In this document: positions 3,612 to 36,458 of the stretch, one piece after another | How positions within the stretch are numbered: position 1 is the stretch's first letter | Layout of the letters: every line of letters begins with the position of its first letter | Origin: Candidatus Bathyarchaeota archaeon | GTDB lineage: Archaea; Thermoproteota; Bathyarchaeia; 40CM-2-53-6; DTDX01 | NCBI GenBank assembly: GCA_018396775.1 | Contig: JAGTRF010000004.1 | Span: 16,214 to 80,213 of the forward strand | DNA: 64,000 nt | Reading direction: 5' to 3' | Made by a program: the position numbers and the translations under genes | The notes under the pieces: model-generated | Seen by the model: only the letters and a program-made list of their open reading frames with translations | Databases searched by the model: none | Told to the model about the DNA's origin: nothing

Positions 3612-3643
3612 ATGATAATTTTAATTAAAATAAATAAAAGAGT

Positions 3644-18844: not shown

Positions 18845-19248
18845 AGCTTTTGAATGGGAAAACTTGTGAAGTTTGCTTAAGAAATCAAGCCAAATATGTT
18901 TGTGGGAAATGTGGTAGAAATGCATGCGAGTTTTGCTTTAACTCTCACTCTTGGCTTTGCTTAAAATGTGAAGAGCAAATGCAGCCTATAGCGAAAGTTG
19001 CAAGCTTTGATACATCTAAACTCATATTTTTAGGTTTTATATTGATTTTTATAGGTATGTTTATAATGTTCATAGCATTCTTATTAACAGGTGTAAGCAA
19101 TGGGGGAATAATGTTATTTTTTGGGCCAATACCATTCATGTTAAATTTTAGGGATGGAAACATTAAACATTTAATTTTAGTTTTTATAGCTTTTACTACT
19201 GTAATTCTTCTTTTTTTAACAATTCTCTTCTCTAAAAGAAAATATTGA
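18835..19248 (+). CDS. zinc-ribbon plus two-TM membrane protein
   Basis: N-terminal 8-Cys double zinc ribbon (CEVCLRNQAKYVCGKCGRNACEFCFNSHSWLCLKCEE), then a membrane domain homologous to 18596..18844. TTG start. Confidence 0.5.
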   Translation: MELKLLNGKTCEVCLRNQAKYVCGKCGRNACEFCFNSHSWLCLKCEEQMQPIAKVASFDTSKLIFLGFILIFIGMFIMFIAFLLTGVSNGGIMLFFGPIPFMLNFRDGNIKHLILVFIAFTTVILLFLTILFSKRKY

Positions 19249-19256
19249 TAATATTT

Positions 19257-19772
19257 TTAATTCTTTTTTAAAGCTGGATGATTTAAATTATTAAATGGGC
19301 TTTGAGGGGCATATTTAATTAAAGCTTCCTCTTCCTTGGTAACTAAGTATCCAGGAACAGAAACTATTTTATCACCTATCATTATATGCCCATGAGTTAC
19401 AAGCTGCCTAGCTTGATGAATTGATTTAGCTAAATTCAATTTAAAAACTAGAGTTTGCAACCTTCTCTCTAAAAGGTTTTTTACATCTAAATCAAGAACT
19501 TCATCTATTCCAGCATTTTCTGGGAGTAAACCTAGCTTTACAAGTTTAGGTATATATTCTCTTCGCAACTTTTCTCTCTCTTCTTCAGGTTTACCTAAAA
19601 GCGATCGAGCTATTGCTCTAATTTTAGAAAGCATGCTTTTATAACGCCAAAGCTCTCGTTTATTTCTCAACCCATACTCTCCTAAAAGCTTCAGCTCAGC
19701 CTCTAGTTGCTCTCTTCGCCAAGGATGCCTAGGCGTCTCATATTTTTTTCTTTGTTTTCTAGGATCACCCAT
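19257..19772 (-). CDS. rps4: ribosomal protein S4
   Basis: MGDPRKQRKKYETPRHPW...LGEYGLRNKRELW. Confidence 0.9.
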   Translation of the reverse strand: MGDPRKQRKKYETPRHPWRREQLEAELKLLGEYGLRNKRELWRYKSMLSKIRAIARSLLGKPEEEREKLRREYIPKLVKLGLLPENAGIDEVLDLDVKNLLERRLQTLVFKLNLAKSIHQARQLVTHGHIMIGDKIVSVPGYLVTKEEEALIKYAPQSPFNNLNHPALKKN

Positions 19773-20557: not shown

Positions 20558-21564
20558 TTATTTCTTCCATAGTTTTGGATAGGTTCCAGGAGGCATTATA
20601 ACCCTTTTAATTTCAACAGCTAATCCTTTATTTAACTCTAAAATTTGCTCTGTTGAAAGCAAAGCATTACCTAAAGCTACAACCTCATTTTTTAAAGTGA
20701 AAATAGCTACTATTTGTTTTGGTTGAATATTGGATTCTATCCTTACTATTCCTGGAACTGCTAAATAAGCTCCATGGCATATAGCGTCAACAGCCGAATC
20801 TTTTATGTAAATTTTCGGAATATACTCGAAACATTCTTCAATTGGGCGAATAATCTTTCTTAATTTTTCCTCGCCTCCAAAATTTTTATATTCAATTGCA
20901 GCTTCGAAAACTTCATGAAGAGTATGAATTTTTTCGTTTTCAGTGAAGGGCCCTGTTCTAATTCTTCTAAGCTCTTTCATATGAGCCCCAACACCTAACG
21001 CTTCACCTACATCAAAACAAAGTTTCCGTATATAGGTTCCTGCTTGACAAGAAACTTTAAATAAAACTCTTCTCTCTTCAACTTCAAGTAGCTTAATATT
21101 GTAAATTCTTCGCTTCCTAACTTCTCGTTTAACTGAAGCTCTTAAAGGTGGTTTTTGATATATTTCTCCAGTAAACTCTTTTAAAGCGTTAACGATTTTT
21201 TCTTCTGTCACATTACTATGTAATTGCATTAAGCATATGTATTCTTTACCGGAGTGAAGAAAAACCTGTAAAGCTTTTGTAGCATCCTCTAAAGCTATTG
21301 GAAGCACGCCAGTTACTTTTGGGTTTCCTCAGCTTAAGCTTCTAAGGTCCCGCCGTGACCAGCGCGCTTCACATCTAATATTTTTTTCACCCAAGCTGTA
21401 ACTTCATGGCTTGAGGGCCCTGGTGGTTTATCTAAATTTATTGCTCCAAAATTTATATAGTTTTGCATCGATCTATTTTCAGGGAGACAACCATATTTAA
21501 AATCTGTTTCACACTCTTCCTTCACTATAATTTCTCTTTTCAACATCCATGGCGGAATCTCCAT
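20558..21564 (-). CDS. cbf5: tRNA/rRNA pseudouridine-55 synthase Cbf5 (TruB family, PUA domain). The reading frame is interrupted by a 17-nt insert at the catalytic GTLD|PKVTG motif
   Basis: ORF track shows an N-terminal piece (21334..21564, ...LDKPPGPSSHEVTAWVKKILDVKRAGHGGTLEA*) and a C-terminal piece (20558..21307, GTG start). Conserved coding actually resumes at 21322 (PKVTGVLPIALEDA...) in another frame. Confidence 0.8.
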
Positions 21565-22276: not shown

Positions 22277-22555
22277 ATGGGTGGTGAAATCAAGTTTTTA
22301 ATAAAAAAGCTTGTTTTAGATGTTTTAAAACCTAGAGAGCCTCCAATTTATGATTTAGCAGCTAAATTAACCAGCTGCCAAGGTGTTAATGAAGTTAATA
22401 TTTTGTTAGCTGAAATAGACCAGAATACTGAAAGCATAAAAGTTTCAATTACCGGAGATGAAATTGATATAGAGACCATAAAAAAATGTGTAGAAGAGTA
22501 TGGCGCTAGCATTCATAGCATTGATGAAGTTACTGTAGCTAAGAGGAAGCGTTAG
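22277..22555 (+). CDS. DUF211-family small protein (commonly paired with VIT-like membrane proteins in archaea)
   Basis: [20 protein letters not shown]...[33 protein letters not shown]...[10 protein letters not shown]. Confidence 0.55.
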
Positions 22556-22796
22556 CTTTTTCAGGTTGTAAAGCTTTAAGAACAGCTTCATCAGAAGCAC
22601 CTTTTTTAATTTTTATTTTTTCTTCAGTTGGCTTTAAATGCTTTATATTCACTCTTCTTCTTTTAACTCCAGTTAAAGACTTTGGTCCAGTAACTAAAAC
22701 AAAATTTTTATCAATAACATCAATTATAACGCATTTTTTTCCCTTCTCTCTACCTGAAGTTTTTACGCATATGCGCCCTATTTCCATAGCCGTCAT
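22539..22796 (-). CDS. rpl14e: ribosomal protein L14e
   Basis: [39 protein letters not shown] is a KOW-type L14e. Confidence 0.85.
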
Positions 22797-22798
22797 TT

Positions 22799-23341
22799 TT
22801 AATTGTCCCCCTTAAAATAGCTTTTTGCAAATTTAACAATTTTCTCAAGGATTTTTATAGTTTCATCTTTACTAAATAAACCTGTATCAATTATTAAATC
22901 ATATATTGAAAGATCCTCAATGTTTATTCCATAATATTCTTTATATCTTTTTCTTTCTGAAGCTTCTCTATTTAAAGTTTCTTTTTCAGCTTCCTCAAGC
23001 GTTAAACAATCTCTTTTAGATATTCTTAATATCCGCTCTTTTTTAGATGCTGCTACATAAATTTTTAAAGCTTTATTTTTTATAAACCAAGGCGTTAACT
23101 GGCCTTCTAAAACAACATCACCTTCTTCAGCCGTCTTTTTTACTTCTTCATCAATAGCTAAATCAATAGATTTATCTACTTCAGAAAGCCTTGACAATTC
23201 CTCTATAGAAACACCTTTTTCATAAGCTATCTTTCTAAACATTTCTCCAGCGGAAACATATTTTAAATTAAATTTTTTAGCTAAAGCTTTAGCGCATGTA
23301 GATTTACCTGTACCATGTAAACCCCCTATAGCAATTATCAA
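22799..23341 (-). CDS. cmk: cytidylate kinase (archaeal type)
   Basis: [14 protein letters not shown]-loop; sits at the conserved position between the DUF106 gene and rpl14e. Confidence 0.8.
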
Positions 23342-23354
23342 TTGAAAACCTCCT

Positions 23355-23891
23355 TTAATCTTCAGGGTTAACGCCTAACAATCTAGATAAAGGAAGGCTT
23401 ATTCCAAAAGAGCAAATTATATACCATAAAAAGAATGATAATTTAAAAGCTTTATAAGTTTCATCAATAGCTCCAGTTAAGAGGAATGGGATTGAAAACG
23501 GCGTTAAAGCTACAGGTTGAGTTCCATAAAATCTGCTTAAAATCATAAACACAAGCCAGAAGGGCACGAGAAATAAAAGGCTTATTTTCATTCTATCCCA
23601 CATCATTTTTCCCTGAAGATTCATTATAGCTTGCTGCTTCTTCATAACTTTAGCAAGCAATTGTTTATTTTTACTCTTTTTAGCTTCTTCAAACTCTTTT
23701 CTCCACGCATTAACTTCCTTCATTACAGCCTTCATCTTTTTAATATCGACTAGAAACCTGTTAGATAAATTAGTTATTAATGATAATATCATAGCTACTC
23801 CTAAAATTAATAATGTTGAATTTGGAATTGAAGCGTAAGGCTGAAGGCTTCTCATTATTTGCTTGAATAATTCATCGATTAAAGCTACCAT
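23355..23891 (-). CDS. DUF106 / archaeal Oxa1-YidC-EMC3-like membrane protein
   Basis: Three TM segments with a central coiled-coil (KKMKAVMKEVNAWRKEFEEAKKSKNKQ); conserved position downstream of secY. Confidence 0.7.
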   Translation of the reverse strand: MVALIDELFKQIMRSLQPYASIPNSTLLILGVAMILSLITNLSNRFLVDIKKMKAVMKEVNAWRKEFEEAKKSKNKQLLAKVMKKQQAIMNLQGKMMWDRMKISLLFLVPFWLVFMILSRFYGTQPVALTPFSIPFLLTGAIDETYKAFKLSFFLWYIICSFGISLPLSRLLGVNPED

Positions 23892-23906
23892 TTTATTTAT
23901 TCCCCC

Positions 23907-25328
23907 CTATTTTTTACCCATTAAAGCGCTTAAAGCAGGGTACATTTCAAGCATTCTTTCTCTAGCTAAAATTTGATAATATTGTTCTAAAATTCCAACC
24001 ATTAATAATATTCCTACCCCTGAACCAAAAACACCGAAAAAATCAGCTGTAGCGGCTATAAAACCTATAAGCAAACCCCCAAGAATAGTAACTGCAGGAA
24101 TGTATCTTTCAAAAATCTTTTGTATTGGGATAGGGGAACGCCTAAACCCTCCTATTTGCATTCCTGAATCTAAAAGTTGTTTAGCCACAGATTTAGCATC
24201 CATTCCAGCAACTTCAATCCAAGTTATGGCGAAGAAAACACATGTGGCCATCATTACCATTATATGCATAATTGCTCTTATAGGATCGCTTAAAGCTTCG
24301 CTTAAGCTTTTTGGGGAAATTAAATAATATACTAATCCACCGCTAGGCTTATAGCTTCCTTCTTTAACTTCAAAAGTTCCAATCAAATTCAACCAAAAAT
24401 TTGAATTTGTTGAATTATATCTTGACCATAAAATTTGAGATATAAAATATATGTTTCCGAATAAAGCTGAAGCAAAAATAACAGGAATGTTAGAAACATA
24501 AAGAAGCTTTATTGGATATTTTCCTCTAAAACCTCTATATTTAGCGTATGACACAGGGACTTCAACTCTTAATCCATCCAAATAAATTATTACTAGAAAA
24601 ATAACGATTGTTGTTATAAAACCAATCATATCAGGTAAACCTTCAGATCTGTAAAAAGCTTTAAAAGCTTCGTTTAAGCTTCTAAACGATTGAGCAAATG
24701 CTACTAAAGCTCCTAAATATTTTCCATCCGACATAGGTCCAAGTGGAGCGACGCTACTCCACCAAATGGCTTGTGCAACACCTGCAGCTATAAATAAGCT
24801 TATTCCACTGCCAAAACCCCAACCTTTCTGCAAAAGCTCATCCATAAGCATAATAACAATTCCGGCAGCTAACAATTGAAGCAAAATTATTGCTTGAGCT
24901 TGAAAACTAAGCTTACCATACGCTCCACCTATTAAATAAGCTAAAGCTTCAAAAATTGTCATAAAAACTGCTAAAACTTTGCTTGCGCTTGTAAAAAGCG
25001 CTCTATCAGAAGGGTTTGTTAAATCTACATCTATCATTTTTGATCCTGAAAGAATTTGAAGAATTAACCCTGCTGTAACTATAGGGCCTATTCCAAGCTC
25101 CATTAATGTTCCTCTATGAGAAGCGAAGATAACTCTTAAGGCTCCAAAAGGATCTTGAGCTCCCCCCTTCCCAATACCGTATAAAGGAATTTCAGACATA
25201 ACAAAGTATATAATTAAAACTAACCCTGTCCAAAGTAATCTTTCATTAAATGAAACTTTCTTTTTTGGAGAGGAGATATCGGGAAAAAACCTTGCTAAAG
25301 GCTTAAATAATTCTATAAATCTAACCAT
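23907..25328 (-). CDS. secY: preprotein translocase subunit SecY
   Basis: 473 aa, 10 TM helices; ...ISPKKKVSFNERLLWTGLVLIIYFV... N-terminus. Confidence 0.9.
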   Translation of the reverse strand: MVRFIELFKPLARFFPDISSPKKKVSFNERLLWTGLVLIIYFVMSEIPLYGIGKGGAQDPFGALRVIFASHRGTLMELGIGPIVTAGLILQILSGSKMIDVDLTNPSDRALFTSASKVLAVFMTIFEALAYLIGGAYGKLSFQAQAIILLQLLAAGIVIMLMDELLQKGWGFGSGISLFIAAGVAQAIWWSSVAPLGPMSDGKYLGALVAFAQSFRSLNEAFKAFYRSEGLPDMIGFITTIVIFLVIIYLDGLRVEVPVSYAKYRGFRGKYPIKLLYVSNIPVIFASALFGNIYFISQILWSRYNSTNSNFWLNLIGTFEVKEGSYKPSGGLVYYLISPKSLSEALSDPIRAIMHIMVMMATCVFFAITWIEVAGMDAKSVAKQLLDSGMQIGGFRRSPIPIQKIFERYIPAVTILGGLLIGFIAATADFFGVFGSGVGILLMVGILEQYYQILARERMLEMYPALSALMGKK

Positions 25329-25761
25329 GAGACAATTCTACCTCTTTACTTTTAGCAAGCAAAACAACTTTTCCTCCTGCTTCTTCAATTTTCTTTTTAG
25401 CAGCATTAGAACACTTCTCAACAATCACTTCAACAGGCTTAGTTATAGTTCCTCCCCCAAGAAGCTTCTTATAACCTAAATCAACTAAATTTATTGAGGT
25501 TGATTGATTTAATTTATCTCTTATCAATTCCTCCAATTCATTCACATTTATAACATTTCCTTTACTTCTTAAAATTTTAAAACCTTTTTTCCCCACTTCT
25601 TTTTTACCATATGTAACCATATAACTCCATTTATGGTTAAATTTTCCAGCTTTTCCAAAACCTCCTCTCATCCCGCTTTTTCTATGTTGACCAGAAACAC
25701 CCCAACCGCAAGTTCTTGAACCACGCATTTTTCTACTCTTTTTTTTAACCATTTGAAACAC
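25321..25761 (-). CDS. rpl15: ribosomal protein L15
   Basis: KKKSRKMRGSRTCGWGVSGQHRKSGMRGGFGKAG. Confidence 0.85.
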   Translation of the reverse strand: MFQMVKKKSRKMRGSRTCGWGVSGQHRKSGMRGGFGKAGKFNHKWSYMVTYGKKEVGKKGFKILRSKGNVINVNELEELIRDKLNQSTSINLVDLGYKKLLGGGTITKPVEVIVEKCSNAAKKKIEEAGGKVVLLAKSKEVELSHG

Positions 25762-25777
25762 CTCTTTTCTCCGTTTT

Positions 25778-26218
25778 CTAGCTTTTAGTGTTCAATTCAA
25801 TTAAATTTTCACGCGTTTTTTTCAACTCTATTATTAAAACTCCATTTTTAAGGGTTAATGAAAGAGGCTTAGGGTTAACAGGTTTCGGTAAATCTAAAGC
25901 TTTATAATGCTGGATCTTTTCTTTTCTGGAGATGATTATTAAAGTTTTCTCTTGAACTTTAACTTCTAACTCTTCTTTTTTAACTCCTTGAAGTTCTGTT
26001 ACCACAATTATTTCATATTCTTTTTCAATAACATCTGTTAAAGGTTCAAATTCGCTAAATCTTTTAACACTCATCTTAAAATAGTTTCCTTTAAACTCAT
26101 GAATAGGCGTTTTTCCTTTAATTCCAAAATAAAAGCCTCCAGGTTTATATGAGAAAGGACCCTCAAAATCATCTCGCCAAGGTAAATTTCCTCGTCTTCT
26201 TTTAAACTCTTCACTCAA
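25778..26218 (-). CDS. small heat-shock protein (Hsp20/alpha-crystallin family)
   Basis: Alpha-crystallin domain EYEIIVVTELQGVKKEELEVKVQEKTLIIIS...ALDLPKPVNPKPLSLTLKNGVLIIEL. Confidence 0.75.
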   Translation of the reverse strand: MSEEFKRRRGNLPWRDDFEGPFSYKPGGFYFGIKGKTPIHEFKGNYFKMSVKRFSEFEPLTDVIEKEYEIIVVTELQGVKKEELEVKVQEKTLIIISRKEKIQHYKALDLPKPVNPKPLSLTLKNGVLIIELKKTRENLIELNTKS

Positions 26219-26296
26219 GCCTTTCGCCTTCCCTATAAGAATAAATTTAAGGAGAAAACAAATATATAAATAATTAATTCTGTCTGTAAAGGTTTA

Positions 26297-26785
26297 TTAA
26301 ACCATTCTAGCTATAAGCTTATTTATCTCTCTCCCTCTATACCCTAACTCTCCTTTAAGCTTAAATGGTTTTTTTATACTTCCTTTAAAACCTTTTGAAG
26401 GAGAGTTTAATTTAAAAGGGAGATTTAAATAACGCAGCTTTTTTAAAGATATTTCCCCATTAAATATCGCTTTAGCTAAATCTTTAATTGAGTTAAAACC
26501 GAATTTTTCTTTAACTTTTTCATCTGTAAGCTTTTCTCCAGTTATGGTTTTTCCTCTTTTAATTAATAAAAGGTAAATAGATTGTTCATCAGCTTCACCC
26601 CAGGTGATTAAATCTTTAACTTTTTCAAGCATTCCTTTAATGCTTGAGGTTTCATGAAAAATCATAGCATTATGCTTTTTAGAAAGCTTTAATAGTTTTA
26701 AAGTTGTTTTTGCTTCAGGGCAAGCTCTAGGCATTCCTCTAATTCTAACAACAATTAAACACTTTCCATTTTTAACAGAAACCAT
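26297..26785 (-). CDS. rpl30: ribosomal protein L30
   Basis: LIVVRIRGMPRACPEAKTTLKLLKL; archaeal long L30p. Confidence 0.85.
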   Translation of the reverse strand: MVSVKNGKCLIVVRIRGMPRACPEAKTTLKLLKLSKKHNAMIFHETSSIKGMLEKVKDLITWGEADEQSIYLLLIKRGKTITGEKLTDEKVKEKFGFNSIKDLAKAIFNGEISLKKLRYLNLPFKLNSPSKGFKGSIKKPFKLKGELGYRGREINKLIARMV

Positions 26786-26789
26786 TTCT

Positions 26790-27419
26790 TCACCTTGCCC
26801 AATCTTTTGAAGTAATAATTTTATAAGTGTTTTTTAAAGCGTCGTAAACAGCGAAAGCTGTTGAAGCGATCGTGCTTGTGGAACCGAAAGTTCTAGTCCA
26901 GCAATCTTTAACTCCAGCAAGCCTTAAAATTGTTTTAACAGCTTCTCCAGCAACAAGCCCTAAACCTCTAGGCCCAGGAATTATCTCTACAGTTACGCTT
27001 CCGCATTTCCCTGCAACTTTAAAAGGAATAGAGTGGGGAAGATCACATCTGCACTCCCAACTTCCACACCCCCTCCTAATAGGTGTTATATTCAGCTTTG
27101 CTTCAGCTGCAGCTTTTTCTATAGCTGTTCTCACCTGCTTTGCTTTTCCCGTGCCAACACCTATAAAACCCTCTTCATTTCCAACAGCTACAACAGCTCT
27201 AAATCTTGTTTTTTCTCCAGCATCAGTTTGTTTTTGAACAAGCCCTATCCCTAAAACTTCTTGTTGAAGATTAGGGAGAAGCGCATCAGTTATTTCAGGC
27301 TCCTTAATTTTTAATCCTTGCGATAAAATATCTTGAATTGAGACTATTTGACCTGAAAGAACCATTTCTCCCAACTTTGTTTTTGGAATCCATTTACCTT
27401 TAGATTCAGCTTTCTCCAT
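26790..27419 (-). CDS. rps5: ribosomal protein S5
   Basis: RFRAVVAVGNEEGFIGVGTGKAKQVRTAIEKA...GSVTVEIIPGPRGLGLVAG. Confidence 0.9.
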   Translation of the reverse strand: MEKAESKGKWIPKTKLGEMVLSGQIVSIQDILSQGLKIKEPEITDALLPNLQQEVLGIGLVQKQTDAGEKTRFRAVVAVGNEEGFIGVGTGKAKQVRTAIEKAAAEAKLNITPIRRGCGSWECRCDLPHSIPFKVAGKCGSVTVEIIPGPRGLGLVAGEAVKTILRLAGVKDCWTRTFGSTSTIASTAFAVYDALKNTYKIITSKDWAR

Positions 27420-27428
27420 TTTATTTTT

Positions 27429-27854
27429 TTACCTCTTTTTAATTAAATTGTGAGTTTTTATATATTCTTTAAGGTGGAAGGAATCTTTAAACGATCCGCC
27501 TTTAGCCATCATATATAATTGACGGTAAACTTTTTTTGTAATAAGTTTTTTATCTCTAAGAGTTTTAAGATGCTTTCTAATCTTTCTAATTTTATTTACC
27601 CAAAGCCTTTTTTTAGGTAAAGAGGTGCCTTTAACATTTCCCGGGGTCCTTCTTTTTTTAGAAGCTCGTTTTCTCCCTTTGCTAACTCCTTTAGCTTTAA
27701 CTTTTTTAATTACACCTTCATGAATAAGCTTTCTAACTTCTTCTCTAGTTATAGCGCCTTCCACTCTATCTATTTGTTCAGAATCGATTTTAATTCGGCT
27801 TTCACCACTCTTCAATATTTCTGCTGCAAGCCGCTTTTGAGTTTTTACACTCAT
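27429..27854 (-). CDS. rpl19e: ribosomal protein L19e
   Basis: [17 protein letters not shown]...[10 protein letters not shown]...[13 protein letters not shown]. Confidence 0.85.
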
Positions 27855-28228
27855 TCAGCTTTCTCTCCTTCAGCCTCTTCCACTACTGGTTTTCGGTTAA
27901 GAACTTTCAAGCCTAATTCTTTAGCTTTCTCTAAAATTTGAAGCCTCTTTCTTTCTCCTATAGAATGTGCTATTATAACTGCTTGAAATTCTTTATTTAC
28001 TTTTTCTAACTCTTTAACATTATGAACGATTACAGGTTTATAACCTGAGGGGTGAACTCCTCTTAAACTCCTTTTCCCTCCATAACCTACAGAAACAATT
28101 TTAGGCCAACCTTTTATTCTTCTTCGCATTCGGCTTGTTTTTCCTTTAGGTTTTCTCCAGCTAGATTTAACTCTAATATAACGCCAGCTTTCTTGCCTTT
28201 TGAAAACGGGTTTTTTACGGTTCACCAT
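27851..28228 (-). CDS. rpl32e: ribosomal protein L32e
   Basis: [40 protein letters not shown]. Confidence 0.85.
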
Positions 28229-28778
28229 TCTCTAAGCCTTCCTTCCTTTCATAAATGTAAATTCCATCTAAAAATACTCTTTGATCCTTCTTTTTGATTT
28301 TCGTAGCCTGCTCTATATTGCTTGCAGTTTGACTTACTTCCTTTAAGTTTACTCCTTGAACAATTATATCGTCTGCTTTAACTTTAACTTTAACGTTTCC
28401 AACGATTTTAGCTGTTCTAGGCGATTTTTCACCTATGAAGTTTTCGATAATTATTTTATTTTCACTTACTTTAATTGTTACTGGAAAATGAGAATAAACA
28501 ACCTTAAGTTTATATGTGAATCCTTTAGTAACACCTTTAATTAAGTTTTTAATAAGAGACGCGATCGTCCCAACAATAGCAGCCTGCTTTATTTTAGGCC
28601 AATAAGCATAAACAATCACTTCCTTATTATTGTTTAATTCGATTTTAACAGGTGCATGAGAAAAATCTTCTACTAAAGTTCCCAATGGCCCAGAAACTTC
28701 CATTAAATTATTTTTCAATGTCACATTCACGTTTTCTGGAATTGAAACCACTCTTTTCTCAACTTCTATCTCTTCCAT
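28215..28778 (-). CDS. rpl6: ribosomal protein L6
   Basis: Two-domain L6: IPENVNVTLKNNLMEVSGPLGTL...YSHFPVTIKV. Confidence 0.85.
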   Translation of the reverse strand: MEEIEVEKRVVSIPENVNVTLKNNLMEVSGPLGTLVEDFSHAPVKIELNNNKEVIVYAYWPKIKQAAIVGTIASLIKNLIKGVTKGFTYKLKVVYSHFPVTIKVSENKIIIENFIGEKSPRTAKIVGNVKVKVKADDIIVQGVNLKEVSQTASNIEQATKIKKKDQRVFLDGIYIYERKEGLENGEP

Positions 28779-28793
28779 TTAAAAGCACCCTTT

Positions 28794-28979
28794 TCAATTA
28801 TATTTTTTAAATCCGAGTTGCTCAGCAACTTCTCTAAAACATTGCCTACAAAGGTATAATCCATATTTTCTAATAACTGGACCATATTGACCGCATCTTC
28901 TGCAAGGTCTACTTCCTTTTCCAATTTTTCTTTCTTTTTTAGGCTTATGCTTCATTAAATTTTCATTCCCTCTTTTCAA
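28794..28979 (-). CDS. rps14: ribosomal protein S14 (zinc-binding Z type)
   Basis: 61 aa; [25 protein letters not shown]. Confidence 0.85.
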
Positions 28980-29518
28980 TCTTTAACTATTTCTACTCCA
29001 AAATTCGATTTAATAAACTGGATAGCTTCCTCTTTAGAGATTAAATGTTTCTTTCCAATTTTAGATTTTTTTCCAGCTCTTCGCTTTACTCTAAACCCTG
29101 GTCTCTCTAAACTAACGCATACATTCATCCCTATCATTCCAAGCTTTGGATCATATTTTACGCCGGGAATATCTATATGCTCTTTTATTCCAAAGGAAAA
29201 GTTTCCATACTCGTCAAAACTAGACCCTTTAAGCTTGTTTCCAACAGCTTCTAAAACTTTCTTTAAAAATGAGGTTGCAGCCCCTCCTCTTAAAGTAACC
29301 ATGCAAGCTATAGGTTCCCCTTTTCTTATACCAAAATCTTTAATTGTTCTTTTAGCTTTTCTAAAGCAAGGTTTTTGTCCAGTTAAGCTAGATAAAATTT
29401 TAATAGCTTTCTCCAAAGGTTCTCCAGACTCTCCAATACAAACATTAACTGAAACTTTTTCTATTCTTATTTTCTTCATTGGGTTCTCTTTTATTAAAAT
29501 CTCGCTTGTTGAACTCAT
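28976..29518 (-). CDS. rpl5: ribosomal protein L5
   Basis: [23 protein letters not shown]...[21 protein letters not shown]. Confidence 0.85.
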
Positions 29519-29529
29519 TTTTTACACCA

Positions 29530-29967
29530 TTAAATTATTATGTTAGCTACATTAGCTATTCTAGGCCATCTTTCAGCCGCTTCTTTAGCTACAGGTCCTT
29601 TAATTTCTGTACCTTTAAATTCTCCTTCAGCTGTCATTAATACTGCAGCATTATCCTCAAATTGAAGCCAAAGTCCGTCTCTTCTTCTATACGGTTTTCT
29701 TTGTCTTATTATTATTGCAGGAAAAACTTGTCCCTTTAACTCTGGTGTTCCCTTAACTACAGTAACACGAATCATATCTCCAATGCATGCTGCTGGCAGT
29801 CTTCTAAGCCTTCCCTTATAGCCTGTTACTGAAATTAACTTTAAAACTTTAGCTCCTGTATTATCAGCGCAAGTTAATCTAGCGCCTGTAATTAAACCTC
29901 TGGAGATACGTGGTCTATATTCTACTACTCCTTTAGCGCTTACAGCTCTAGTTTTTGGACCAGGCAT
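29530..29967 (-). CDS. rpl14: ribosomal protein L14
   Basis: [40 protein letters not shown]. Confidence 0.9.
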
Positions 29968-30010
29968 TTTACTTCACCATTTTAAGAATTTATTAAGGTT
30001 TAATTTTAAA

Positions 30011-30340
30011 TTAGCGTTTAATTTTCTCAACAACAACGAAAGATATGTTTTTGCTTATTGGTTTGCATTCAGCTATCTTCACTATATCGCCTTGCTTAGC
30101 TTCAATGCAAGGTGGATTATGAGCTAAAATTTTGCTGCGACGCTTTTCATAACGCATATATTTTCTTACATAATGAAGGTAATCCTTTCTTACAACAATA
30201 GAGTTTTTCATTTTATCGCTAGCTACAACTCCAATTATTATTTTTCCTCTAACCTTCAATTTACCATGAAACGGGCATTTAACATCGTCGCAAGTTTTTT
30301 CAGGAGCTGAAACATTTAAACCTATGTTTTTCGTCACCAA
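30011..30340 (-). CDS. rps17: ribosomal protein S17
   Basis: [30 protein letters not shown]. Confidence 0.85.
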
Positions 30341-30591
30341 CGTTTCAACCTCATTTTTAATCTATTTTCAGGTCTTCCAACTAAAATTTTTCCATTAACT
30401 TCAACTATTTTCCCATTTGGTAAAAAGATGTGAAAAATTGAAATATCCTTTGGAATAAGCTTTATTTTACCGTTTGTTTGAATACATAAAGTGTTTTTAG
30501 TTTCATCTATTATTAACCCTTCTAAACCGTTAAGCTGAAGATTTTTACAACATGAAATTTTAACCTTTAAGCCTATTAATTCATGTTTCAT
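30334..30591 (-). CDS. rnp1: RNase P protein component 1 (Rpp29/Pop4 homologue)
   Basis: 85 aa; [35 protein letters not shown]; conserved position between rpl29 and rps17. Confidence 0.75.
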
Positions 30592-30605
30592 TAAATTTTC
30601 TGGAG

Positions 30606-30827
30606 TTATTTCCGTGGTTTAACTCCCCCTTTCTTAGTTTCATTTTCAATAGTTAAAAGCCTGGCTATTGTTTTTTTAATTTCCCTTATTTTTGCAGGAT
30701 TTTCAACTGCTCCTCCAGCTTTACTCATAGTTTTTAACCTCATTAACTCTACTTTAAGCTCCTCTATTTTTTTTAACCGCTCTTCTGAACGCATTTCTCT
30801 CATTTCCTTCATCCTTAAAATTGCCAT
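30606..30827 (-). CDS. rpl29: ribosomal protein L29
   Basis: LRMKEMREMRSEERLKKIEELKVELMRLKT. Confidence 0.85.
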   Translation of the reverse strand: MAILRMKEMREMRSEERLKKIEELKVELMRLKTMSKAGGAVENPAKIREIKKTIARLLTIENETKKGGVKPRK

Positions 30828-31436
30828 TTAATCCCCTTCTTGCTTAACTTTTATCGCAGGTTTATCTGGAAACTTAGCATTTGGAAGAAGAATTCTAACT
30901 TTAATTCCATAAAGTCCAGGTTTTAATTGAACATACGTGACAGCGGTCTTCATTTGCTTTAAAACCGGATCACCGCACTTAGGTAAATATCCTGCACCAT
31001 ATTTTTCATGTCTTGCTCTTTCAGTTGTTAGTTTTCCACCAATAATTATTTCAGCTCCTAAAGCTCCAGCCTCCATTATTCTTTGAAGAGCCCAGTAAAC
31101 AGCTCTTCTAAAATGAATTCCTTTTTGAAGCGCAGCGACAATTTGAGAAGCGATAACTTGAGGGTTAAGCTCTGGATTTTCAACTGTAGCAACAGAAATT
31201 TGAGGATTTTCAATTCCAAACCTTTCTTCTAAAATTTTAGTTAACTCTCTTATGCTTTGCCCACGCCTTCCAATAACTACTCCAGGTCTAGCAACATAGA
31301 TGACTACCCGTGTTCCTAAAGGCGTTTTAGTTAATTCAGTTCCAACATATCCTGCTTTATTAAGTTCCCTAGCTAAAAACTCGTTTACTTCAGCTTTCCT
31401 TAAATTTTCTTTAATAAAATATTTATTTATAGACAT
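30828..31436 (-). CDS. rps3: ribosomal protein S3
   Basis: KH domain VVIYVARPGVVIGRRGQSIRELTKILEERFG. Confidence 0.85.
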   Translation of the reverse strand: MSINKYFIKENLRKAEVNEFLARELNKAGYVGTELTKTPLGTRVVIYVARPGVVIGRRGQSIRELTKILEERFGIENPQISVATVENPELNPQVIASQIVAALQKGIHFRRAVYWALQRIMEAGALGAEIIIGGKLTTERARHEKYGAGYLPKCGDPVLKQMKTAVTYVQLKPGLYGIKVRILLPNAKFPDKPAIKVKQEGD

Positions 31437-31595
31437 TATTAAGTTAACCTTCCAGCTTAATCTTTACTAATTAATATTGAGCATTATCCATTTGAAGCTT
31501 TACCTTATAAAATTTGCTTTTTTAAATATTTTAAAAGAAGCTTTCCATTTTTATATAATATCTAAAACTGAAAATTTTCGTTAAAACAATAAAGA

Positions 31596-32063
31596 TTAAG
31601 AAGAAGCTTCATAACCTACTAACTCTACATGAGTTAAAGTTTCAAATTTAGGGGTAGCTCTACCAAAGGCTCTTGGAATATATCTTTTAATTTTTCTCCC
31701 CCGCTGCGAAGCTGCATGAATTATAACCAAGTTTTCTACATCTAAGCCTTTATATTCAGCGTTTGCCTCTAATTCGTTTAACAATTTTAAAATTTTATCT
31801 GCTACTTTAACCGGATATCTTCCTGCATATCCTTTCTCATTCATTCTCCTATGAGAAACCTCTTTTTTATATCTTTTAAAAGGTATTGCTTTCTTCATCG
31901 CCTTCACTTCTTCCAAAAAGCTTTTAGCTTCGCTTACTTTCATTCCTTTAATCGCCTTGCAAACTTCAGTAGCAGCTTTCACGGAGATTCTAAGCTCTCT
32001 TCCAGCACATTTAACTGTTTTATCCGGGTCTAAGTTTTGAATTGAATATCCCCATTTAGGCAA
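31596..32063 (-). CDS. rpl22: ribosomal protein L22
   Basis: LRISVKAATEVCKAIKGMKVSEAKSFLEEV. Confidence 0.85.
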   Translation of the reverse strand: MPKWGYSIQNLDPDKTVKCAGRELRISVKAATEVCKAIKGMKVSEAKSFLEEVKAMKKAIPFKRYKKEVSHRRMNEKGYAGRYPVKVADKILKLLNELEANAEYKGLDVENLVIIHAASQRGRKIKRYIPRAFGRATPKFETLTHVELVGYEASS

Positions 32064-32083
32064 TTCGATTCCCCATTAATCTT

Positions 32084-32485
32084 CTACTTTAATGGAACAT
32101 ACATGCTTGATCTAGAAGCTCCTATGCCTGGAGTTCCGTGAACAACCCTCTTATTAGTTATAGCGAATTCTCCTAAATAATGTCCTATCATCTCTGGTTT
32201 AATTTCTATAGAAACAAACTCTTTTCCATTATGAACTAGAATTGTAAGCCCAATCATTTCTGGAAGAATAATCATATCTCGGCAATGAGTTTTAATAGGC
32301 TTCTCACTTTTTGAAGAAGAATGCTTAATCTTCCTTATTTTAGTTAAAAGAATTTTTTGCTGTTCAGTTAACCCTTTAAGCAGTGATCTTCTCTGTCGAG
32401 ATGGAAGAAGCTTGATAAATTCATCCATAGACATTTGCTGAAGTTGAGTTAATGTATATCCTCTATAAGTAAATTCACGAGGCAT
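32084..32485 (-). CDS. rps19: ribosomal protein S19
   Basis: [31 protein letters not shown]. Confidence 0.9.
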
Positions 32486-32558
32486 TTTTAACGCCTTCTC
32501 TTTTTATTTCTTCACCTTTATTTTTTAAGCTTTCTCTCTTTTTAATTTTTCTTAAATT

Positions 32559-33305
32559 TTATTGAGCCCCTCTCCCAGCTTTCTTTCCTCTTCCAGTTCT
32601 TCTAGCAGCTATTAAACCAACTTTTCTTCCTGGAGGAGCATGCCTAGAGATTGTTGTGGGCTTCCCAGGATGCCTATGTCTTCCTCCACCAAATGGATGC
32701 GAAGCAGCTATCATGGCTTGACCTCGCACTCTAGGATATTTCTGACCTTTAGAAGCCATTAAAGCTGCTTTAGCTCCAGCTTTCAGAAACGGTTTTTCCA
32801 TCTTTCCAGCTCCAGAAACAACTCCTATCATAGCTCTGCATCTACCATCTAAATATATTGATTTTCCTGATGGAAGTTTTAATTCAGTTCCCATAGGTGT
32901 ATGAGAAACTACAGTAGCGTAAGCTCCAGAAGCTTTAACAAGCTTTCCCCCATCTCCAGGAGATAGCTCAATATTGCATACAAGCGTTCCCTCAGGTACT
33001 TCCTCTAGGGGGAGAATGTTGCCAATTTTTACTGTTGCAGCTGCTCCCCTTAAAACTTCTTGGCCTACACTTATTCCTTCAGGAGCAGGAATATAACATT
33101 CTTCTCCATCTTCAAATTTTAAATAAGCTAAAGGAGTCCCTCTTCCAGGATCATGCACAAGATCTGCAACAACCCCTTTAATTAAACTTTTCGCTTCTTC
33201 CTCTTTAAGCGTTGGAAATGCTGCTTCGCTAACTCTTTTATGGGTTAAAGCTCTAAAAATTGAGCCTCTCCGCCCTCTTCTTTGAACAAAAATTCTTTTA
33301 CCCAA
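32559..33305 (-). CDS. rpl2: ribosomal protein L2
   Basis: HPFGGGRHRHPGKPTTISRHAPPGRKVG. Confidence 0.9.
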   Translation of the reverse strand: MGKRIFVQRRGRRGSIFRALTHKRVSEAAFPTLKEEEAKSLIKGVVADLVHDPGRGTPLAYLKFEDGEECYIPAPEGISVGQEVLRGAAATVKIGNILPLEEVPEGTLVCNIELSPGDGGKLVKASGAYATVVSHTPMGTELKLPSGKSIYLDGRCRAMIGVVSGAGKMEKPFLKAGAKAALMASKGQKYPRVRGQAMIAASHPFGGGRHRHPGKPTTISRHAPPGRKVGLIAARRTGRGKKAGRGAQ

Positions 33306-33396: not shown

Positions 33397-34503
33397 ATGG
33401 GTTCAAATGAATATCTTAAATTAAAGGATTTAGATAAATTTGGAATGTTAAACTTTATAGAGAAAGCTCCAGATTATTTACGTTTAACTTTAAATTTAAT
33501 TAAAAGTGGAGAAGTAAACTGGAGTAAAAACCTTGAGAATTTAGAGGGTTTAAAGGTAGAGAACGTTTTAATCTCTGGGCTTGGCGGCTCAGCTATAAGC
33601 GGGGACATAATTGTTGATTGGATTTGGGAAAAAAGCTCCATTCCAATAATAGTTAACAGAGATTATAAATTACCTCAATTTGCTGGAGAAAAAACTGTCG
33701 TTATAACGGTTAGCTATTCTGGAAATACATTTGAAACTTTAAATCAATTTTATGAAGCTTATAAAAGAAAGTGTATTTTATTCAGCGTTTCTTCTGGAGG
33801 AAAATTGATGAAAGCTTCTGAAAGGCTTAAGATTCCTTTTTTAAAAGTTAAAGAAAGTCTTCCACCTCGTGCAGCTTTACCATGCCTGCTTCCAGCTGTA
33901 ACATATATTTTATCAAAGTTTGAGCATTCAATTTTGATTTCTGAATTGGAAGCGGCGGCAAATAAGATGGATGAGGTGAAAAAAGAGGTTGGATTCCATC
34001 GTAAAGTTGAAGAGAATCCAGCTAAAAAAATGGCTTTAAACATTATTGGAAAATATCCAGTAATATATGCTTTTGCAAATATGGGAAGCGTTGCTAGAAG
34101 GATAAAAGATCAAATTAATGAAAATAGCAAGGTTTCAGCTAAATTTGATTTTTTACCTGAAGCATGTCATAATGAAATTGAGGGAACATTTTTTCCGGTG
34201 AAAGAAAACCTTTGCTTTCTATTTATTGAGCCTCAAGAAAAAATTGAAAAAGTTATAAGCGAGGAATTTAAAAAAGTTTTAAGAGAGAATGGCTTCATTA
34301 ATATTTATGATATTCCAGTGAAAGGAGAAACTAAAATAGAGAAGATTCTTACATCAATTTATTTCGGGGATTTTACTTCATTTTACTTATCTTTAGCATA
34401 TAATGTTGACCCAACAGTTACGAAGAATATTCAAAAATATAAAAATGGAGTAAGCGAAGAAGCTTCAAAATTAATTAATTATTTTGAAAGCCTTATCCTT
34501 TAG
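33397..34503 (+). CDS. bifunctional phosphoglucose/phosphomannose isomerase (SIS-domain, archaeal PGI/PMI family)
   Basis: VLISGLGGSAISGDII...VITVSYSGNTFETL SIS motifs; 368 aa. Confidence 0.7.
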   Translation: MGSNEYLKLKDLDKFGMLNFIEKAPDYLRLTLNLIKSGEVNWSKNLENLEGLKVENVLISGLGGSAISGDIIVDWIWEKSSIPIIVNRDYKLPQFAGEKTVVITVSYSGNTFETLNQFYEAYKRKCILFSVSSGGKLMKASERLKIPFLKVKESLPPRAALPCLLPAVTYILSKFEHSILISELEAAANKMDEVKKEVGFHRKVEENPAKKMALNIIGKYPVIYAFANMGSVARRIKDQINENSKVSAKFDFLPEACHNEIEGTFFPVKENLCFLFIEPQEKIEKVISEEFKKVLRENGFINIYDIPVKGETKIEKILTSIYFGDFTSFYLSLAYNVDPTVTKNIQKYKNGVSEEASKLINYFESLIL

Positions 34504-35959
34504 TTACACCTAATGGAACTAATCTAGCTACTTTAAAGGCCACTCCAACCTTATGGCTTACTTCAGCCACTCTATCTACATCTTTATAAGCGTCAGGGGC
34601 CTCCTCGCTTACAACAGCTATGCTAGCTGCTCTAATTAATATTCCTTGATTTTCAAGTTTTTGCTTAACTTCGCTTCCCCAAAACCTTTTTTTAGCTGCA
34701 GCTCTGCTTAAAACTCTTCCAGCACCATGCGCAGTTGAGCCAAAACTAACTTCCATAGCTTTTTTAGAGCCAACTAAAACCCAAGAGCTTGTTCCCATGC
34801 TTCCTGGAATAATAACTGGTTGACCTATGCTTCTATATTTTGCTGGCACATCTTTATGCTCCGGAGGAAAAGCTCTTGTTGCACCTTTTCTATGAACACA
34901 AACAATTCTTCTTTTTCCATTAACAACATGCTCTTCCTTTTTAGCTATGTTATGAGCAACATCATATACTAAATGCATTCCTAAAGACTCAGCTGATCTA
35001 TTGAAAATTTTTTCAAAAGCTTGTCTAGTCCAATGCGTTATCATTTGCCTATTAGCCCAAGCAAAATTACATGCAGCTGCCATAGCAGGTAAATAATCTT
35101 CAGCTTCAGGGCTTTTTATTGGAGCGCAAGCCAATTCTCTATCTGGAAGCTTTATATCATATTTTTTAACAGCTCTCTCCATAACCTTTAAGTAATCATC
35201 GCATATTTGATGACCGAAACCTCTACTACCTGTGTGAACTAAAACCATGATTTGCCCTTCTTCCTCAATTCCAAAACTTTTAGCTATATTTTTGTTAAAA
35301 ATTTTATCCACAACCTCCACTTCTAAAAAATGGTTTCCACTTCCTAAGCTTCCAAGCTGAGGGTAACCTCTACTCTTAGCTATAGAGCTGACTTTACTTG
35401 GATTAGCGCTGCTCATGCATCCATTTTCCTCGCAGTTTTCAGCATCTTCAGGCCAACCGTAACCCGCATCTATAGCCCAATTAACGCCTTCAGAAGCTAC
35501 TTTATCAAGCTCTGAAAGAGCAACCCTTAATTTTCCCCTGCTTCCTAATCCTGAAGGAATATAATTAAATAATACATCAAGCAGCTTTGGTAAAACAGGT
35601 TTAACATCATTAATTCTTAAGTTAGTTCTTATAAGTCGAACTCCACAATTTATATCGTAACCCACTCCACCAGGGCTTACAACGCCCTCTTCATAATCTG
35701 TAGCTGCCACTCCACCTATTGGAAAACCATACCCTTCATGGCCATCAGGTAAAGTAATAGACCATTTATAAATTCCCGGTAAATGAGCTACATTAGCGCA
35801 CTGCTCAATCGTTAAATCCCCCTTCATTTTTTCAAGCAAAACTTCATCGCTATAAATTCTTCCTGGAACCCGCATTCCAGACTTATAAGAAGTTGGAATC
35901 TCCCAAATACATTCATCCAGCTTTATTAACGGAACATGCTCAGAGCTTCTTCCAGACAT
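34493..35959 (-). CDS. rtcB: RNA-splicing ligase RtcB (tRNA exon ligase)
   Basis: ...NVAHLPGI...PDGHEGYGFPIGGV...DINCGVRL...HTGSRGFGHQ...GSTAHGAGR; 488 aa, no intein. Confidence 0.9.
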   Translation of the reverse strand: MSGRSSEHVPLIKLDECIWEIPTSYKSGMRVPGRIYSDEVLLEKMKGDLTIEQCANVAHLPGIYKWSITLPDGHEGYGFPIGGVAATDYEEGVVSPGGVGYDINCGVRLIRTNLRINDVKPVLPKLLDVLFNYIPSGLGSRGKLRVALSELDKVASEGVNWAIDAGYGWPEDAENCEENGCMSSANPSKVSSIAKSRGYPQLGSLGSGNHFLEVEVVDKIFNKNIAKSFGIEEEGQIMVLVHTGSRGFGHQICDDYLKVMERAVKKYDIKLPDRELACAPIKSPEAEDYLPAMAAACNFAWANRQMITHWTRQAFEKIFNRSAESLGMHLVYDVAHNIAKKEEHVVNGKRRIVCVHRKGATRAFPPEHKDVPAKYRSIGQPVIIPGSMGTSSWVLVGSKKAMEVSFGSTAHGAGRVLSRAAAKKRFWGSEVKQKLENQGILIRAASIAVVSEEAPDAYKDVDRVAEVSHKVGVAFKVARLVPLGVTKG

Positions 35960-36023: not shown

Positions 36024-36458
36024 TTATAAATCCAAAATAAACTTTGCTATAAATTTACCCGACTCTTGAGAAATACTCATCTTATGGTAAGTTACTGCTT
36101 TAACCTCTGTTTTAGATAAATGCTTATTTTTATCAAATGCTTCCCCAAAAACTTCAGCCTCTAAATAAAATAAATTATTTACCTGCGTTATTTTTTTAAC
36201 GTTAAAAATCGAGTAAAGCTTTAATTCTATTTCAAACTTTAAGAGTAAAGCTTCAAGCCAATTATGAAGAAGCACTATTTCATCTTCTCCTTCAACTTTA
36301 ATTTCATCCCTCAATTGAGGTTCAATTAATTTTGTATCCGTCATAACTTCGAACATAGCTAATCCAGCATTACTAAAAGCTTCTTCTAAGCTTTCACCAT
36401 AAGCAGCTATATAAGCGTCGCCCACATGCTCTAAAAACTCAAATTTTTTATCAACCAT
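36024..36458 (-). CDS. archease (RtcB activator)
   Basis: 144 aa; FEFLEHVGDAYIAAYGESLEEAFSNAGLAMFEVMTD; sits immediately downstream of rtcB. Confidence 0.8.
   Translation of the reverse strand: MVDKKFEFLEHVGDAYIAAYGESLEEAFSNAGLAMFEVMTDTKLIEPQLRDEIKVEGEDEIVLLHNWLEALLLKFEIELKLYSIFNVKKITQVNNLFYLEAEVFGEAFDKNKHLSKTEVKAVTYHKMSISQESGKFIAKFILDL

Follow-up and report, generated by a model that had tools for sequence, protein, structure and literature searches.

Ribosomal protein genes missing from the S10-spc super-operon of a Bathyarchaeia genome very probably lie in a second, complementary cluster

The window analysed here, a 64,000-nucleotide stretch of DNA whose proteins bear the NCBI name 'Candidatus Bathyarchaeota archaeon', carries a long cluster of mostly ribosomal protein genes on its minus strand. 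Pfam confirmed the identity of every member and gave the order L2-S19-L22-S3-L29-Rpp29-S17-L14/L5-S14/L6-L32e-L19e/S5-L30-Hsp20-L15-SecY/EMC3-Cmk-L14e, in which slashes mark the four junctions of Table 1. The retained genes keep their canonical order and orientation through L15-SecY (Pfam, 20 consecutive genes), and the Hsp20 gene occupies the identical slot in locus L005 and in loci L116-L118. Both the gene order and the tightness of the junctions, as given in a preliminary description of this DNA, were reproduced, with spacers of 9-15 nt and one correction: three spacers listed there as 12, 16 and 10 nt are each one nucleotide too long, the measured sizes being 11, 15 and 9 nt.

Table 1. Features of the main cluster and of the region upstream of L2 (coordinates in the window).
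Feature	Coordinates	Strand	Basis
Archease	36024..36458	-	Pfam PF01951
RtcB RNA ligase	34493..35959	-	ORF translation; 91% identical orthologue in L005; L110 homologue has PF01139
Phosphoglucose isomerase-like gene (PGI), divergent from operon	33397..34503	+	Pfam PF10432
91-nt intergenic region upstream of L2, expected place of L3-L4-L23	33306..33396	-	sequence
First colinear block (L2, S19, L22, S3, L29, RNase P p29, S17, L14)	29530..33305	-	Pfam
L2	32559-33305	-	Pfam
S19	32084-32485	-	Pfam
L22	31596-32063	-	Pfam
S3	30828-31436	-	Pfam
L29	30606-30827	-	Pfam
RNase P p29 (Rpp29)	30334-30591	-	Pfam
S17	30011-30340	-	Pfam
L14	29530-29967	-	Pfam
Junction 1, L14 to L5, 11-nt spacer (TGGTGTAAAAA), expected site of L24 and S4e	29519..29529	-	sequence
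Block L5, S14	28794..29518	-	Pfam
L5	28976-29518	-	Pfam
S14	28794-28979	-	Pfam
Junction 2, S14 to L6, 15-nt spacer, expected site of S8	28779..28793	-	sequence
Block L6, L32e, L19e	27429..28778	-	Pfam
L6	28215-28778	-	Pfam
L32e	27851-28228	-	Pfam
L19e	27429-27854	-	Pfam
Junction 3, L19e to S5, 9-nt spacer, expected site of L18	27420..27428	-	sequence
Block S5, L30, Hsp20, L15, SecY	23907..27419	-	Pfam
S5	26790-27419	-	Pfam
L30	26297-26785	-	Pfam
Hsp20, inserted between L30 and L15	25778-26218	-	Pfam
L15	25321-25761	-	Pfam
SecY	23907-25328	-	Pfam
Junction 4, SecY to EMC3, 15-nt spacer, expected site of archaeal adenylate kinase (Adk)	23892..23906	-	sequence
End block (EMC3/DUF106, cytidylate kinase, L14e)	22539..23891	-	Pfam
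EMC3/DUF106	23355-23891	-	Pfam
Cmk (cytidylate kinase)	22799-23341	-	Pfam
L14e, last gene of main cluster	22539-22796	-	Pfam

Each of the four junctions is occupied in related loci: L24 and S4e fill the L14/L5 slot in L003, L004, L016, L027, L113 and L116, S8 the S14/L6 slot and L18 the L19e/S5 slot in L004, L016, L113 and L116, and Adk the SecY/EMC3 slot in L027, L113 and L116. When relatives' L24, S4e, S8, L18, L3, L4, L23 and Adk were used as TBLASTN queries, none had a match anywhere in the window's 64 kb (lowest E values 0.1-3.7, and 0.12 for the Adk of L027), and neither TBLASTN nor the sequence of the window revealed gene remnants at the junctions. The reported absence of Adk between secY and the DUF106 gene is borne out by the short spacer and the negative TBLASTN result; Adk and S11 are both missing from their usual slots and neither was located. 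The junctions are identical in L001, a Logan assembly made independently, whose proteins are 100% identical to those of the window, and are also present in L005, a GTDB MAG with an 89% identical SecY; they are therefore no assembly artefact and, as proposed at the outset, represent genuine gene adjacencies.

It had also been proposed that the operon begins at L2, without L3-L4-L23, and our TBLASTN results for the window agree with this, as does the position of the PGI gene, which is divergent and lies 91 nt upstream; the intervening region presumably holds the promoter of the main cluster. Archease and RtcB are parts of a conserved anchor, AdoMet synthase-aaRS-archease-RtcB, which precedes L3 in canonical relatives and stands ahead of L3-L4-L23-L2 in L039, L074, L085, L090 and L110. 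In many surveyed loci the order is a minus-strand PGI followed by L3, L4, L23 and L2, the relatives' PGI lying upstream of L3. The window cluster would have stayed at the ancestral locus, behind archease-RtcB-PGI.

The SecY protein is 67-89% identical to those of GTDB MAGs titled Bathyarchaeia. The suggestion that the arrangement is a taxonomic clue was sound, the organism being an uncultured member of the Bathyarchaeia (Thermoproteota) and no cultured methanogen. Because the window has genes for the mevalonate pathway and for H4MPT-linked one-carbon enzymes, the genome is not obviously reduced. An H4MPT Wood-Ljungdahl pathway is known in Bathyarchaeia, and the Ftr, Mtd and FwdBD genes fit that pathway; we rejected as unsupported the idea that they mark a methanogen, and no mcr was found among the ORFs scanned. 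Rfam identified a single tRNA in the window. Around the split in cbf5, folding yielded no energy signal (z = 0.29), so that the putative intron there, a 17-nt insert at about 21324-21340, is called from restoration of the reading frame only.

An AT-rich S8 homologue pointed to locus L017, where the genes run S19e-L3-L4-L23-L24-S4e-S8-L18 and the spacers between them measure -8 to 27 nt. We found this composite cluster complete in seven loci, namely L017, L019, L020, L022 and L030 (GC 31-33%) and L024 and L025 (GC 53%), and truncated in four others (L018, L021, L023 and L026). Comparison with the canonical loci L113 and L116 established that it is the exact complement of the window cluster, in ancestral order and orientation; its genes in the relatives are intact and Pfam-positive. 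The two clusters thus complement each other, each preserving the ancestral order with all its genes on one strand, and all junctions in both are operon-tight and free of insertion-sequence remnants.

The same cluster can be traced in the window's own MAG by accession proximity, equal contig size and clade-wide conservation. NCBI WGS proteins are numbered along their contigs, and in the present case the numbering can be checked: the window's SecY (MBS7655357/MEM2842302) and L5 (MBS7655366/MEM2842311), on a 207,089-bp contig, are nine accession steps apart, an exact match to the ten genes from SecY to L5. An L3 (P0123, MBS7655610/MEM2842882) and an S8 (P0260, MBS7655605/MEM2842887) on a 129,139-bp contig share accession blocks with the window proteins, and are separated by five steps, which fits L3, L4, L23, L24, S4e and S8. 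An L18 (P0344), 94% identical to the L18 of L022, is on a 129,139-bp contig with the same sources and contig count. P0123 and P0260 share 88-95% identity with their composite-cluster counterparts in L017, L019, L022 and L030, a divergence that matches the 86% identity of the window to L005. Chimeric bins do occur among MAGs, and the MBS and MEM records are possibly not independent binnings.

The preliminary description had interpreted the gaps as the loss of four ribosomal proteins and a possible sign of ribosome reduction, while allowing that the genes might have moved as a block to another place in the genome. It is the latter that we found, for L24, S4e, S8 and L18 together with L3-L4-L23: L3, S8 and L18 are placed in the MAG directly, by accession block or contig, and L4, L23, L24 and S4e are implied by accession arithmetic and by conservation of the cluster among relatives. 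Universal ribosomal proteins are not absent genome-wide, as would mark a reduced ribosome. Since the missing genes are intact in a second cluster, the ribosome is complete and only the organisation of its genes has changed. We therefore consider it very probable that L24, S4e, S8 and L18 were relocated with L3-L4-L23, splitting the S10-spc super-operon into two complementary clusters. This low-GC (~32%) genome would have the super-operon partitioned into two predicted separate transcription units: the window cluster would keep L2 to L14, L5-S14, L6-L32e-L19e and S5-L30-(Hsp20)-L15-SecY, and L3-L4-L23, L24-S4e, S8 and L18 would be intact and fused behind S19e on another contig of this genome, with their ancestral order and orientation preserved.

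We weighed two other explanations of the gaps. The contig with L3 to L18 might derive from another, co-binned organism, the window organism's copies lying elsewhere or being differently arranged, since what ties it to the window genome is the closeness of accessions within a MAG and not physical contiguity. We regard such a binning artefact as highly improbable: the clusters complement each other exactly, no gene being doubled or missing, their GC contents agree (31-33% against 32%), protein divergence among clade members is equal for both, and an owner of the composite cluster only would be without L2 to L15. True loss, which would leave an organism with a reduced ribosome lacking L24, S4e, S8 and L18, has on its side the clean junctions and the absence of these genes from both the 64 kb window and 21 kb of L005, yet can practically be dismissed, because accession block or contig assigns L3, S8 and L18 to the same MAG, the complementary cluster has intact, Pfam-positive genes in 7 complete and 4 truncated loci of relatives, and uS8, uL18 and uL24 are established universal proteins.

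How the split arose is less clear-cut. Tandem duplication followed by random loss (TDRL) is a model of mitochondrial gene-order change. Change by duplication and reciprocal loss has likewise been formulated as the SNAP hypothesis (PMC7055797). Two complementary, colinear, same-strand subsets such as those described here are the signature expected of one such event. We infer, with about even confidence, that the super-operon was duplicated and that redundant copies were then lost reciprocally. One duplication/loss event and a later separation of the halves would give exactly two complementary colinear subsets; as the two clusters are not adjacent, duplication-loss does need that extra separation step. 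The same outcome could be reached by duplicative transposition to the locus of S19e. The halves are now on different contigs, and duplicated intermediates or decaying second copies, which a SNAP/TDRL-type process may leave in related lineages, were not seen: among ~100 loci, in which the nearest lineages are thinly sampled and the main operon of the L024/L025 type is not represented, no genome had both copies, a pseudogene remnant or an intermediate order.

That no duplicated intermediate was found would suit relocation by three or four independent excision/insertion events, perhaps involving mobile elements. Operons in Bathyarchaeia are often broken or invaded: in L113-L115 a TnpB/Cas12f-like gene separates S19 from L22, in L116-L118 an integrase fragment separates L22 from S3, and many loci come to an end after S19 or L23. 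Another clade (L027-L029, L003, L006, L007) is without a different subset, L3, L2, S8, L18 and L30. Against serial relocation, four blocks have come together at one site in ancestral order and orientation, for which simple combinatorics would give a chance of ~1 in 192 under random order and orientation, and the operon-tight junctions of both clusters hold no insertion-sequence remnants. We consider it possible, if somewhat doubtful. Complementary sets could also arise without duplication within the genome if an L3 to L18 cluster of foreign origin had come in by horizontal transfer and the native genes had then been deleted. However, outside the clade the nearest homologues of the composite-cluster L3, S8 and L18 are those of other Bathyarchaeia, and composite-cluster proteins have diverged from those of canonical Bathyarchaeia loci in step with the main-cluster proteins (60.6% versus 62.9% identity to L116). 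Such parallel divergence from canonical Bathyarchaeia orthologues indicates vertical descent, and xenologous displacement is very unlikely.

The duplication and reciprocal-loss reading can be extended, more speculatively. In the clade with the partition, the seven cluster proteins fall to ~63% mean identity and GC ranges from 31 to 53%. The second cluster would group primary rRNA binders and assembly initiators, the proposed initiators being uL3, uL4, uL23 and uL24 (23S domain I, exit tunnel), uS8 (16S central domain) and uL18 (5S rRNA), and these would be expressed apart from late-assembling proteins. A single duplication/random-loss event might have 'unshuffled' the most conserved prokaryotic gene cluster into interleaved halves that were kept clade-wide for separate expression of early assemblers, the same process having run independently, or been resolved in another way, in the L027-type clade; we think this joint scenario unlikely as a whole. 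Candidates for the partner cluster of the L027-type clade, guessed from contig counts and sources (P0237, P0306 and P0059), all gave canonical operons, which serve as ancestral comparators but provide no second test of duplication-loss.

The S10-spc core is the textbook case of a gene order that has stayed frozen from the last universal common ancestor onwards, and MAGs are widely judged against it for synteny and completeness. The present case indicates that it can be partitioned in an interleaved manner and remain so across long evolutionary distances. Gaps in the operon should accordingly not be taken as gene loss, MAG incompleteness or contamination. The partition offers a clean natural end-state for tests of duplication and reciprocal-loss models of gene-order evolution, as well as a synapomorphy usable in classifying one Bathyarchaeia clade.

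The canonical archaeal S10-spc order is L3-L4-L23-L2-S19-L22-S3-L29-Rpp29-S17-L14-L24-S4e-L5-S14-S8-L6-L32e-L19e-L18-S5-L30-L15-SecY-Adk. Sister Bathyarchaeia lineages retain the full operon; L113-L115 and L116-L118 have every gene in textbook order, and L116 also has Hsp20 and VIT1 synteny in common with the window. The retained genes of the window follow the same relative order and orientation at the same locus, behind archease-RtcB, as in canonical Bathyarchaeia, whereas L3, L4, L23, L24, S4e, S8, L18 and Adk have been removed at four or five points. Nanoarchaeum equitans and other reduced DPANN genomes have dispersed ribosomal protein genes, and share with the window lineage the lack of universal ribosomal protein genes at expected operon positions; unlike theirs, the displaced genes described here are re-clustered in order and not singly scattered. 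Our literature search found no description of such an arrangement in Bathyarchaeia. A 14-gene core, uL22 to uL15, is contiguous in all surveyed non-Asgard archaea but one thaumarchaeote, and split S10-spc clusters are known from Heimdallarchaeota and Nitrosopumilus-like Thaumarchaeota (PMC10833476). Those splits are cuts into consecutive segments, for example uL22 to uS14, uS8-uL6, and L32e to uL15 (PMC10833476), whereas the window lineage has alternate genes in its second cluster, both clusters being colinear with the ancestor.

ORF listing and Pfam scans placed a minus-strand ribosomal cluster in the window, in the order L2, S19, L22, S3, L29, RNase P p29, S17, L14, L5, S14, L6, L32e, L19e, S5, L30, Hsp20, L15, SecY, EMC3/DUF106, Cmk and L14e. 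This confirms the gene order of the preliminary description and the slots it had found to lack L24, S4e, S8 and L18. The junctions are tight, as it had reported, although its spacers of 12, 16 and 10 nt were each one nucleotide too large. TBLASTN of the whole 64 kb with queries from relatives gave no match to L24, S4e, S8, L18, L3, L4, L23 or Adk (best E 0.1-3.7), and only 91 nt lie between L2 and the divergent PGI gene upstream, beyond which are RtcB and archease. The same junctions occur in L001, an independent Logan assembly whose proteins are 100% identical, and in L005, a GTDB MAG with 89% identical SecY. They are therefore real and not an assembly artefact, as had been proposed when assembly gaps were discounted.

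Features of the window and of related loci, with positions in the respective sequence
Sequence	Feature	Position (strand)	Remark
Window	Ribosomal cluster	33305 down to 22539 (-)	
Window	L14-L5 junction		11-nt spacer; L24, S4e expected
Window	S14-L6 junction		15-nt spacer; S8 expected
Window	L19e-S5 junction		9-nt spacer; L18 expected
Window	SecY-EMC3 junction	23892-23906	15-nt spacer; Adk expected
Window	Hsp20	25778-26218 (-)	between L30 and L15
Window	AAA_18/KTI12-like ORF	48299-48934 (-)	
Window	S4	19257-19772	
Window	S4/RpoD gap	18504-19256	
Window	Small membrane ORF	18835-19248	no Pfam match
Window	Small membrane ORF	18596-18844	DUF131
Window	RpoD	17694-18503	
Window	cbf5	20558-21564 (-)	two ORFs
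Window	DKCLD ORF	21334-21564	
Window	TruB/PUA ORF	20558-21307	
Window	cbf5 insert	~21324-21340	17 nt
Window	One-carbon gene cluster	55865-62578	H4MPT-linked
Window	~345-aa paralogous ORFs	55865-56905, 56902-57933, 58882-59940	weak nucleotidyltransferase matches
Window	Ftr	57923-58831	
Window	Mtd	60029-60871	
Window	FwdD-like	60882-61271	
Window	FwdB-like	61268-62578	
L017	Conserved ORF	6081-6185	MNESFHLENELIAEAEAKKKARKGPYRKASQLKI
L019	MtmB-like, corrinoid, MtrH-like genes	5123-8138	
L020	MtmB-like, corrinoid, MtrH-like genes	2175-5238	
L113-L115	TnpB/Cas12f-like gene	3452-4588	between S19 and L22
L116, L117	Phage-integrase fragment	5570-5983	between L22 and S3
L118	Phage-integrase fragment	2952-3365	between L22 and S3

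The Hsp20 gene occupies the same slot in L005 and in the related loci L116-L118, with a fragment in L016; HSP20 insertions in the ribosomal cluster have been reported in Thor- and Odinarchaeota (PMC10833476). Adk, absent between SecY and EMC3 in the window, is present at that slot in L027, L113 and L116, and the window's sole kinase-like candidate, an AAA_18/KTI12-like ORF, gives a weak match to the L027 Adk (E=0.12). S11 is absent from its usual slot between S4 and RpoD, where a 754-nt gap holds two small membrane ORFs on the opposite strand; L005 has the same gap.

The missing genes were located through relatives. When a protein collection was searched with S8 of the canonical relative L004, the most AT-biased match (P0120) was found on L017, a 21-kb JGI contig where the genes S19e-L3-L4-L23-L24-S4e-S8-L18 all lie on the same strand, separated by -8 to 27 nt. 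This composite cluster is the exact set absent from the window's cluster and keeps the ancestral relative order. It is complete in L017, L019, L020, L022 and L030 (GC 31-33%) and in L024 and L025 (GC 53%), and truncated in L018, L021, L023 and L026. Since it spans relatives as distant as L024, whose seven composite proteins are only ~63% identical on average, and GC contents up to 53%, the arrangement is old. Both clusters are operon-tight, and their genes are full-length and Pfam-positive. Directly upstream of the composite cluster, between a radical-SAM gene and S19e, lies a conserved ORF of 34-39 aa, seen in L017 and L019-L023. MtmB-like methyltransferase, corrinoid protein and MtrH-like genes a few kb upstream in L019 and L020 suggest methylated-compound metabolism in this clade.

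Exact-match look-ups connected the two clusters. The window's SecY (MBS7655357.1, MEM2842302.1) and L5 (MBS7655366.1, MEM2842311.1) belong to a 207,089-bp contig, and an L3 (P0123; MBS7655610.1, MEM2842882.1) and an S8 (P0260; MBS7655605.1, MEM2842887.1) to one of 129,139 bp. SecY and L5 are nine accession steps apart, equal to the ten genes from SecY to L5 in the window; S8 and L3 are separated by five, consistent with S8-S4e-L24-L23-L4-L3. The L18 of L022 has a 94% identical counterpart, P0344, which agrees with P0123 and P0260 in its sources and contig count and whose longest contig is also 129,139 bp. In both accession series the two contigs are a few hundred proteins apart, and sequential protein numbering within one WGS submission gives such spacing; we infer from this that the relocated genes share a genome with the window. 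P0123 and P0260 show 88-95% identity with the composite proteins of L017, L019, L022 and L030, a difference similar to that between the window and L005 (86% identity over ten markers). The suggested loss of ribosomal proteins, or ribosome reduction, is thus unsupported, as L3, S8 and L18 occur in the window's accession series or on the 129,139-bp contig; the alternative then envisaged, that the genes form a block in another part of the genome, is what the composite cluster and the accession link point to, and genuine relocation is supported.

The value of the gene order as a taxonomic clue was also borne out. In a SecY-anchored scan of GTDB genomes, identity was 67-89% for Bathyarchaeia MAGs and ~50% for other Thermoproteota, and the window's own proteins are named 'Candidatus Bathyarchaeota archaeon' at NCBI. 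The window has a GC content of ~32%. It also encodes enzymes of the mevalonate pathway and, for H4MPT-linked one-carbon metabolism, Ftr, Mtd and FwdBD, whose genes lie among three paralogous ORFs; the genome is not obviously reduced, and nothing shows the organism to be a methanogen. The window's cbf5 is split, and once a 17-nt insert, AGCTTAAGCTGAGGAAA, is taken out, the two ORFs read through in one frame (...GGTL-D-PKVTGVLPIAL...) that contains the catalytic Asp codon. The insert resembles the bulge-helix-bulge intron of crenarchaeal cbf5 mRNA; a simple fold of the region gave no energy signal (z = 0.29). The split recurs in L003-L007, L009-L014, L113 and L116.

Other Bathyarchaeia lineages, which share ~61-63% identity with the window across ten markers, indicate the ancestral state. 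L113-L115 and L116-L118 have the textbook order L3 L4 L23 L2 S19 L22 S3 L29 Rpp29 S17 L14 L24 S4e L5 S14 S8 L6 L32e L19e L18 S5 L30 L15 SecY Adk EMC3 Cmk L14e Cbf5, as do L110 and L052 up to where their sequence ends. L116-L118 share with the window Hsp20 between L30 and L15 and VIT1 before cbf5, and the window arrangement equals that of L116 minus {L3 L4 L23 / L24 S4e / S8 / L18 / Adk}. Because AdoMet synthase, a class I aaRS, archease and RtcB precede L3 in L110 and L2 in the window, the window cluster stands at the ancestral locus and it is the other genes that left. Composite-cluster proteins are 60.6%, 56.8% and 50.6% identical to those of L116, L113 and L052; main-cluster values run in parallel (62.9%, 62.8% and 52.4%), which favours vertical descent of the composite cluster over foreign acquisition.

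The two clusters complement each other: each holds a subset of the ancestral genes, colinear with the original order and in a common orientation. As this is the signature of a single duplication with reciprocal loss, we give about even probability to an origin in which the super-operon would have been duplicated once and redundant copies then lost reciprocally; a further step would have separated the halves, or the second copy may have arisen directly at the RadSAM-S19e locus by duplicative transposition. The tandem-duplication/random-loss model applies to such changes of gene order, and duplication with loss is also the basis of the SNAP model for bacteria (PMC7055797). However, no duplicated intermediate was found among ~100 loci, and there were no remnants, the junctions measuring 9-15 nt (main cluster) and 0-27 nt (composite cluster). 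Serial translocation, in which independent moves built the composite cluster, seems less likely, as four blocks would have had to arrive at a single site correctly ordered and oriented, a chance of ~1 in 192 if random. Judged from gene layout, the simplest consequence of the split would be two transcription units where one stood, and the primary rRNA binders L3, L4, L23, L24, S8 and L18 might then be controlled separately.

An L4-anchored survey of JGI metagenomes showed that breaks in the super-operon, and intrusions into it, are frequent among Bathyarchaeia: many loci end after S19 or after L23, and in some L23 and L2 are separated by inserts of 0.8-2.4 kb. Otherwise canonical super-operons carry a TnpB/Cas12f-like gene (L113-L115) or a phage-integrase fragment (L116-L118); at the L22/S3 position the window has a 159-nt gap. 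A separate clade (L003, L006, L007, L027-L029; GC ~51%) keeps L4-L23-S19...L14-L24-S4e-L5-S14-L6-L32e-L19e-S5 in a main cluster without L3, L2, S8, L18 and L30; no partner cluster was found in the loci looked up for it. Aminotransferase and alcohol dehydrogenase genes, both non-ribosomal, lie there between S5 and L15. The window exemplifies a ribosomal operon rearrangement in which a universal cluster is partitioned in an interleaved way, a caution for completeness arguments that rest on operons. Literature searches returned no description of an interleaved partition. A published survey found the 14-gene core uL22...uL15 to be contiguous in every non-Asgard archaeon it covered but one thaumarchaeote, and the Heimdallarchaeota splits that it describes divide the cluster into runs of consecutive genes (PMC10833476), whereas the window's partition is interleaved.
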